Shown here piece by piece: positions 6,112 to 6,842 of a DNA stretch of 9,725 nucleotides. The translations under genes and the position numbers were made by a program. Source of the stretch: a virus (lineage: Duplodnaviria; Heunggongvirae; Uroviricota; Caudoviricetes); the IMG/VR virus record IMGVR_UViG_2531839454_000019. One strand, given 5' to 3'. How positions within the stretch are numbered: position 1 is the first letter of the stretch; every line of letters begins with the position of its first letter. The notes under the pieces are model-generated. The model was not told where the DNA came from. It was given only the letters and a program-made list of their open reading frames with translations, and searched no databases.

Positions 6112-6842
6112 TTACATCATGTCTTTTTCTAAAAAAAATCTTGATGAATATTGATGGGGAGGAACACCAAAATACCTTCTGAAAACACTTACAAAATATG
6201 ACGTGTTTTCATAACCGCATATCTCAGCAACTTTTCCAACAGAATATAAATTGTAGCTTAATAAGCTTTCCGCCATCACCATTCGCTCTTCAAGAATTAA
6301 CTTACTAAATGATAAGCCTTCGTGCTTTAATTTTCTTTTTAACAGACTTTCACTCAGATACAGTCTTGAAGATATATCACAAAGTCTCCATGCTGCAGAT
6401 ATATCCGTGTGAATAATAGCCTTAACTTTACTTCCTAAACTATTAAGACATCCAAATAAAAAACTTTGCACTATTTTCTCTGAAGATAAGATAGCAAGAC
6501 ATGCAAGTGATATTTGATTTCTAACAAAATCCACAGTTCTGCCATCACAATTCAAGCATGCAATCAAGTTCTTTAACAATGAAAAATCTTCACATTCCAC
6601 CATCAAGTATGCCGGATAAAACCTTCTTACAGAAAAAGGTGAGAGTGTGTTGCTTTTAAAGAAATCATTAACTGTTTTTTCTTCAACATCTACGATCATT
6701 ACATGATCTATATTTGATGAAAAAAATCTTTTAAATTGTAATCAATGAGAACAGCATTTCCTTTTTTAAACAAAATATCTTCTTTACCAATTCGGACATC
6801 AAACGAATTCAACACCAAAATGATAGAACATATGTATGGCAT
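6112..6842 (-). pseudogene. AppY/EnvY-like AraC-family transcriptional regulator, split by a 1-nt frameshift in an A7 (T7 on coding strand) run at 6720-6726
   Basis: C-terminal 195-codon ORF (6699..6112) has an AraC-type HTH domain (...SESLLKRKLKHEGLSFSKLILEERMVMAESLL...GYENTSYFVSVFRRYFGVPPHQY). A 44-codon ORF upstream (ATG 6842, AGGTGG SD; MPYICSIILVLNSFDVRIGKEDILFKKGNAVLIDYNLKDFFHQI*) matches the recalled AppY N-terminus ([27 protein letters not shown]...). One extra T in the run, or a -1 slip on T_TTT_TTT, joins the frames (...KDFFSSNIDHVMIVDVEEK...) into a ~246-aa AppY-sized protein. Confidence 0.65.

Follow-up and report, generated by a model that had tools for sequence, protein, structure and literature searches.

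Why should the gene of an AppY-like AraC regulator be divided between two reading frames that meet at a run of seven T with the form of a canonical -1 slippery heptamer? The question arises from a 9,725-nt DNA record of a tailed phage (IMG/VR record IMGVR_UViG_2531839454_000019, Caudoviricetes), whose full length is called the window here. An earlier note, made from the letters alone, had offered three options: a pseudogene, a sequencing error, or slippage-controlled (phase-variable) expression of a prophage-encoded regulator. Direct reading and translation reproduced all of its coordinates, and the split gene consists of the following parts:

6112..6842, minus strand: whole frameshifted gene, AppY/YdeO-like, AraC/XylS family; 731 nt, the intact form being 732 nt and 243 aa.
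6847..6853, minus strand: putative SD-like AGGTGGA with a 4-nt spacer to the ATG at 6842, suggested by direct reading.
6708..6842, minus strand: upstream ORF of 44 sense codons plus TAG (6710-6708), from translation and alignment to intact homologs and AppY.
6720..6726, minus strand: T7 homopolymer, the site of a 1-bp deletion relative to the T8 of intact alleles (direct reading, pairwise alignment).
6112..6699, minus strand: downstream ORF of 195 codons with an internal ATG at 6699 and stop at 6114-6112 (ORF list, translation).

The upstream ORF starts at the ATG at 6842-6840 and its 3' end reads ...AAA GAT TTT TTT CAT CAA ATA TAG. On translation, residues 1-41 are the native N-terminus and the last three, HQI, are out of frame. 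In this frame the run reads GA_T TTT TTT at 6726-6720, that is T_TTT_TTT, an X_XXY_YYZ heptamer corresponding to the A-run 6720-6726 of the plus strand. Beyond the run the -1 frame stays open, continuing TCA TCA AAT..., so that the junction lies exactly at T7 with the downstream ORF in the -1 frame, as had been claimed. Either a -1 slip or one added T gives ...KDFF/SSNIDHVMIVD... (slash at the junction), which is exactly the sequence of intact alleles. One base is therefore enough to restore the full-length protein, as had been proposed, although its length is 243 aa and not the approximately 246 aa given before.

The two ORFs are two halves of one known gene and no chance pattern. The ATG at 6699 is Met50 of the native protein, and the downstream ORF holds the remaining N-terminal domain and the entire DNA-binding domain; as reported by gene callers, its 195-aa product forms protein cluster P0011, with 623 member sequences. 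The GC content of the gene is 32%. Reinitiation at ATG 6699, which lies 8 nt after the TAG, was considered as the main source of the 195-aa ORF and rejected on the letters and the alignment. Direct reading found no SD-like sequence ahead of this ATG (upstream letters AAATATAGATCATGTA), Met50 does not appear to be a conserved start, its position being occupied by I or V in other homologs, and a product starting there would miss a third of the N-terminal domain.

The T8-restored protein aligned with K-12 AppY over residues 1-233 at 32% identity (E = 5e-42). The alignment begins at residue 1, which confirms that the N- and C-terminal parts are both AppY-like. Pfam HTH_18 scored 54.9 bits (cutoff 33.6) at residues 158-234 of the intact protein and HTH_AraC 44.1 bits (cutoff 26.6), above threshold within the same residues. 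This C-terminal double HTH places the protein in the AraC/XylS family, and the domain is encoded downstream of the frameshift:

6142..6372, minus strand: AraC-type helix-turn-helix DNA-binding domain, residues 158-234 (Pfam HTH_18; translation SSRLYLSESLLKRKL...PPHQYSS).

The best full-length NCBIfam model was YdeO, aligned over 1-236 with 127 bits against an equivalog cutoff of 348, while EnvY was 29% identical in the C-terminal part only. With YdeO below its equivalog cutoff and AppY at 32% identity, membership in the AppY/YdeO orthologous group was not indicated. By these comparisons the protein appears to be a paralog-level relative, for which "AppY-like" is a fair name and "AppY" is not; the label given to it earlier, an AppY-like AraC regulator in a prophage, is thus appropriate. 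The gene shares with AppY and YdeO of E. coli K-12 a length of about 245 aa, an N-terminal M-x-Y-x-C-S and the C-terminal double HTH, and it is prophage-borne, as is appY in DLP12. Whereas appY is located at the far end of DLP12, this gene is located between Q and the lysis genes, and, unlike AppY and YdeO, of which it is not an ortholog, it carries a homopolymer frameshift.

By comparison with annotated relatives, the window reads as a defective lambdoid prophage with the order terminase, DUF1441, gnsB, ynfN, ymcF, cspI, rzpQ, rrrQ, ydfR, essD, AraC gene, YbgA, lipocalin, Q. The regulator occupies the cargo slot between Q and the lysis genes, and other features of the window are:

3747-4163, minus strand: Rfam cspA thermoregulator, 107 bits at full length, 5' UTR of cspI (ORF 3793-4008).
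7194-8153, minus strand: YbgA-family protein (Pfam 2-thiouracil desulfurase plus DUF1722).
8346-8870, plus strand: lipocalin-family protein.
About 9026-9403: Q antiterminator.
9427-9725: one end of an ISEc52 element (IS3 family), abutting the prophage at 24 nt from the Q antiterminator start, on its upstream side.

In many lambdoid prophages the regulator, YbgA-family and lipocalin-family genes likewise form a three-gene cargo module between Q and holin. No complete genome contains the window, the closest complete E. coli genome to its whole length being 97.6% identical. Its structure is mosaic: positions 1-5708 (terminase to ydfR) are Qin-like and 97.7% identical to strain LT2-3, and 5708-9427 (essD to Q) match the DLP12-like prophage of WCHEC020032 at 99.6% identity. 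Since the usual neighbour of the Qin-like part is an 85% allele of the regulator, the cassette was apparently swapped by recombination at essD. The ISEc52 end sits in place of the nin/rusA region, with the same IS and junction in strains 504838 and Ec40743. This replacement would cut Q off from its normal upstream transcription and probably leave the prophage defective.

Relatives of positions 6050-6950 were found by megablast in 1,033 of 5,426 complete E. coli genomes. E. coli 504838 carries the 901-nt stretch at 100% identity, annotated by PGAP as "helix-turn-helix domain-containing protein, frameshifted", and near-identical copies in other strains are likewise "frameshifted" pseudogenes according to PGAP. 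RefSeq annotation thus already flags the pseudogene, and the frameshift is an ordinary, recurrent homopolymer event. Strain X14-3 has a copy at 99.3% identity with one extra base, annotated as intact (243 aa, WP_001146308.1). Its pairwise alignment with the window contains a single gap, which falls within the run, where T7 of the window stands against T8 of X14-3. Around the site the sequence of the intact protein is ...NLKDFFSSNIDHVMIVD..., with GAT TTT TTT TCA as codons 39-42.

A protein search gave intact clusters at 99%, 82-85%, 64%, about 53% and 41% identity, all of them single ORFs of 237-247 aa with aligned N-termini, together with the 195-aa fragment cluster. Isolated phages also carry the intact gene, for example IdasGreatGrand at 99.2% and Lambda_ev phages at 82.7% identity. 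The site reads GTT TTC TTT TCT in the 82% homolog and GAT CTT TTT TCG in the 85% homolog, the run being broken in both by synonymous or other changes. Alignment with intact homologs, which had been proposed as a check, therefore placed T8 in frame in the closest alleles and found the run interrupted at 82-85% identity. The two-frame arrangement and its shift site were not conserved among the divergent homologs, all of which are single in-frame ORFs. Homologs that begin at ATG 6699 and are unlike the upstream 44 codons, which would have spoken against a split gene, were not encountered: the N-termini align, and the upstream 44 codons are real. The homopolymer is therefore peculiar to one allele group and is no conserved signal, and the in-frame T8 is the ancestral as well as the majority state.

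The distribution of tract lengths was determined with exact 97-99-mers as queries; since one mismatch drops the identity below 99%, the band of 99% and above is an exact-match count. This allele group is carried by 583 complete E. coli genomes, at least 232 of them with T7 and at least 240 with T8, and contigs were scanned in addition with a variable-gap pattern:

Local haplotype G..A, complete genomes: T7 in 207, T8 in 50.
Local haplotype G..G, complete genomes: T7 in 18, T8 in 190.
Local haplotype A..A (that of the window), complete genomes: T7 in 7; the T8 count is outside the five queries.
IMG/VR contigs, pattern scan: T8 in 50, T7 in 5, T6 in 2, T9 in 1.
Metagenome contigs, pattern scan: T8 in 15, T7 in 4, T6 in 1, T9 in 1.

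The remaining carriers (about 111 of 583) had no exact match to any of the five query sequences. About 40% of the carriers among complete genomes are thus OFF (T7), mostly in one widespread haplotype group. The window's own haplotype combines T7 with a private SNP at nt 86; 7 complete genomes share it, and the T7 haplotype nearest to it occurs in 207 further ones. The members of this larger group are alike in chromosome sizes and map positions, which suggests largely clonal inheritance. A scan of one genome per species returned a single contig, the 3.2-kb JARKOR010000151.1 (L072) in a "Candidatus Nanosynbacter" MAG. This contig is almost certainly E. coli contamination in binning and has no bearing on distribution.

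For the history of the tract, 47 flanking regions were aligned by MAFFT with fast settings, and a neighbour-joining tree was built from 2.2 kb of flanks with the tract removed (45 sequences, 36 haplotypes). T7 was found in at least four separate places on this flanking-SNP tree, T9 separately, and T6 nested inside the T7 clade of the window. No T7-to-T8 reversion was evident among the 45 sequences. The T6 subclade (L006 and L034: E. coli CH427 and IMG/VR 2534681627) has in addition 541A>T, which gives K181*, and in these two sequences the decay is seen to have gone in steps, from T8 through T7 to T6 with a nonsense codon added. Other T7 lineages carry lesions of their own: in one clade the T6 run at nt 381 is short by a T, in another the A6 run at nt 76 by an A, and some members of the common T7 clade have an IS2 insertion. 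An IS1 insertion was found in a T9 allele. Compared with its nearest T7 relative, the allele of the window has two substitutions, both nonsynonymous (S29N and R193S). The main T7 clade is young, with few substitutions, and its downstream frame is otherwise intact.

The other homopolymers of the gene served as a comparison. Runs of at least 6 nt are A6 at nt 76-81, T8 at 117-124 (the run at the frameshift), T6 at 381-386 and a second T8 at 706-713:

6131..6138, minus strand: second T8 run, near the 3' end and 19 nt before the stop (intact-form nt 706-713); T8 in the window, T7 or T9 elsewhere.

Single-base indels in otherwise collinear copies fall nearly all in these four homopolymers, the two exceptions being single deletions in L007 and L036. 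The 5' T8 was altered in 14 of 71 sequences and the 3' T8 in about 8-9 of 72, where a change of length affects the C-terminal tail only and gives 241- or 245-aa variants. The two T8 tracts thus behave alike, which is what generic replication slippage would produce, rather than a dedicated switch. Some alleles encode 248 aa, a form that presumably results from loss of the usual stop codon. L036, with T9 and a 1-bp deletion 20 nt upstream, was considered as a compensated allele and rejected, because a TAA lies in the shifted stretch and the gene is still disrupted. For some of the singleton variants of the tract, seen in long-read assemblies, sequencing error may be responsible; L080, with five indels, and the CM-prefixed long-read assemblies look like such cases.

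These data bear directly on the possibility of a contingency locus, in which the T8/T7 tract would turn the regulator ON or OFF heritably through replication slippage, with both states kept by selection. The tract-length polymorphism that such a locus calls for is present, since tract lengths from T6 to T9 coexist as ON and OFF alleles; about 40% of the carriers among complete genomes are OFF, T7 is polyphyletic on the flanking-SNP tree, and the tract lies early in the coding region, like those of classical contingency genes. A specially maintained, extra-variable tract was not found, however: it is missing from the 82-85% homologs, and the A6, T6 and 3' T8 runs vary comparably, the last with almost no phenotypic consequence. 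The direction of change does not fit either, since T7 lineages proceed to T6, nonsense mutation, second frameshifts and IS insertions, and return to T8 is not evident on the tree. In mismatch-repair-proficient E. coli, moreover, the mutation rate of an 8-nt A/T run is orders of magnitude below that of classical phase-variable tracts. The phase-variable expression suggested earlier is therefore weakly supported: the tract does vary between T6 and T9 and T7 has arisen repeatedly, but other homopolymers vary in like manner and the tract is not conserved in relatives; we consider a contingency locus distinctly unlikely.

A combined form can be conceived as well, in which the T8 tract would have evolved or been exapted to let lineages toggle the regulator between full expression (T8) and a "trickle" at a very low level (T7), where -1 ribosomal slippage on U_UUU_UUU or stuttering of RNA polymerase would supply the exact native protein. 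This is very improbable; if it were true, an acid-resistance or stress regulon would be tuned in successful clinical clones.

Two features of programmed -1 frameshifting were found, the heptamer and the downstream ORF in the -1 frame, and two were not, a stimulator and conservation. The 80 nt after the run (6640-6719) gave no stimulatory structure, with an MFE of -11.3 kcal/mol and z = -0.56 against dinucleotide shuffles, 51 of 200 of which were at least as stable; the downstream structure whose search had been recommended thus did not exceed shuffled sequence. The fold contained a single weak element:

6694..6708, minus strand: weak 6-bp A/U-rich hairpin GAUCAU-GUA-AUGAUC, 11 nt past the run, indistinguishable from shuffled sequence.

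Direct reading of the 18 nt upstream of the run, TGATTACAATTTAAAAGA, found no SD-like motif (GGAG or AGGA), Rfam gave no match at the frameshift site, and a promoter and terminator scan of 5900-7250 gave counts equal to those of shuffles and no terminator. As far as the sequence can tell, a programmed -1 frameshift is not supported. Programmed transcriptional slippage of the mxiE or Thermus dnaX type was not indicated either, the run being 7 nt long and the arrangement not conserved. The slippage-controlled expression put forward in the earlier note is accordingly not supported, with T8 in frame as the ancestral state, the run broken in homologs, the stimulator missing and T7 decaying further.

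A weaker version would regard T7 as a hypomorph, functional at low level through -1 frameshifting on U_UUU_UUU and/or an extra U added by RNA polymerase, in the manner of mxiE (PMC5009743) or of a "savior indel plus compensatory frameshifting". The heptamer has the right phase and a shift gives the exact native sequence, the main T7 clade keeps an otherwise intact downstream frame, and U_UU.U_UU.U, listed among the motifs above 0.10%, shifts more than background even where stimulators are missing (PMC4066793). In E. coli, however, heptamers that lack stimulators reach at most a few tenths of a percent (PMC4066793), and the efficiency expected here is about 0.1-0.3%. The run is also below the approximately 9 nt needed by RNA polymerase, whose efficient slippage in bacteria is described on 9 consecutive A or T, in keeping with the 9-10 bp hybrid (PMC5009743). 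Besides the missing stimulator, the arrangement is conserved in no divergent homolog, and secondary inactivating lesions occur inside T7 lineages, so that functional recoding at low level is very improbable. UUUUUUU is in fact avoided in all frames, for which indels and transcriptional slippage are cited (PMC4066793).

An assembly or sequencing error in a genome that truly has T8 and an intact gene, the remaining option of the earlier note, is extremely improbable for this allele. Homopolymer miscalls are common and singletons such as L080 and the CM-prefixed assemblies resemble errors, but the window's T7 haplotype with the nt 86 SNP recurs in 7 complete genomes and its sister haplotype in 207, and T7 recurs in IMG/VR isolate-derived prophage contigs and in independent metagenome assemblies.

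The most convincing explanation, which we hold to be very probably correct, is that the cargo gene, AT-rich and carried by a prophage, lost 1 bp at a mutational hot spot and became a decaying pseudogene allele with loss of function. Among the three options raised at the outset, the pseudogene is the one supported by the intact T8 alleles, the "frameshifted" annotation of PGAP and the secondary lesions. A derived single-base indel that truncates the gene before its functional domain, as expected of a frameshift pseudogene, is what was found. The proposed course of events would begin with a cargo ("moron") gene of a lambdoid prophage encoding a 243-aa AppY/YdeO-like AraC/XylS regulator with a T8 run. 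Replication slippage would drop one T, converting T8 into T7, and translation would then halt after 44 codons, so that the DNA-binding domain would probably not be produced at a useful level. The allele would have become heritable and common by fixation in at least one successful prophage or host lineage. The same tract has contracted or expanded independently elsewhere, because an 8-nt A/T run in a gene of 32% GC is likely to act as a mutational hot spot.

The slippery-looking heptamer arises, in this pseudogene explanation, as a side effect when GAT TTT TTT TCA loses one T. Leakage of about 0.1-1%, by -1 ribosomal slippage on U_UUU_UUU or by stuttering of RNA polymerase, is plausible on physical grounds and would recreate the exact native protein; it would be incidental, with no sign of selection for it. 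Other points weigh on the other side. Retention of an otherwise open frame by the window's T7 clade, in more than 200 genomes, would also be expected if a low amount of frameshifted product were useful, and the repeated T8/T7 changes could reflect selection for the off or the on state instead of neutral mutation.

Comparison with known systems places the allele among ordinary homopolymer pseudogenes. The "frameshifted" class of PGAP comprises horizontally acquired, AT-rich genes in which a mononucleotide run has gained or lost a single base, and nothing essential differs here, the allele being notable only for its commonness and recurrence. The nearest functional precedent is mxiE of Shigella flexneri, an activator also of the AraC family. 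Its short upstream ORF and long downstream ORF share a T homopolymer close to the 5' end, and transcriptional slippage, by adding a U to the mRNA, fuses them (PMC5009743). In mxiE the split is the conserved functional state, whereas here it is a derived T7 of a gene with T8 in frame, unconserved and followed by decay; the mxiE run is 9 T long. The programmed -1 sites of E. coli, in dnaX and in the IS911/IS3 family, share the X_XXY_YYZ heptamer in the 0 frame and the downstream ORF in -1, but they are conserved and accompanied by an upstream SD-like sequence and/or a downstream hairpin or pseudoknot, none of which was found at this site.

The importance of the finding beyond annotation is small: what looks like a textbook slippery heptamer where two ORFs meet can be no more than the scar left when a T8 run loses 1 bp. 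The case provides a recipe to tell such a scar from a signal, namely in-frame relatives, conservation of the run, stimulators, secondary decay, and the other homopolymers of the gene as internal controls. As to the regulator itself, PatE, PsrA and PsrB of EHEC O157:H7 are similar by their description as AraC/XylS regulators carried as prophage cargo; these prophage-encoded AraC-like proteins activate gadE/hdeA acid resistance (PMC10877973). Unlike them, the copy in the window is frameshifted. By this analogy, a role of the intact protein in acid resistance or in the modulation of virulence is plausible, and if it acts on acid-resistance genes as PatE, PsrB or AppY do, its loss could add to phenotypic differences between lineages.
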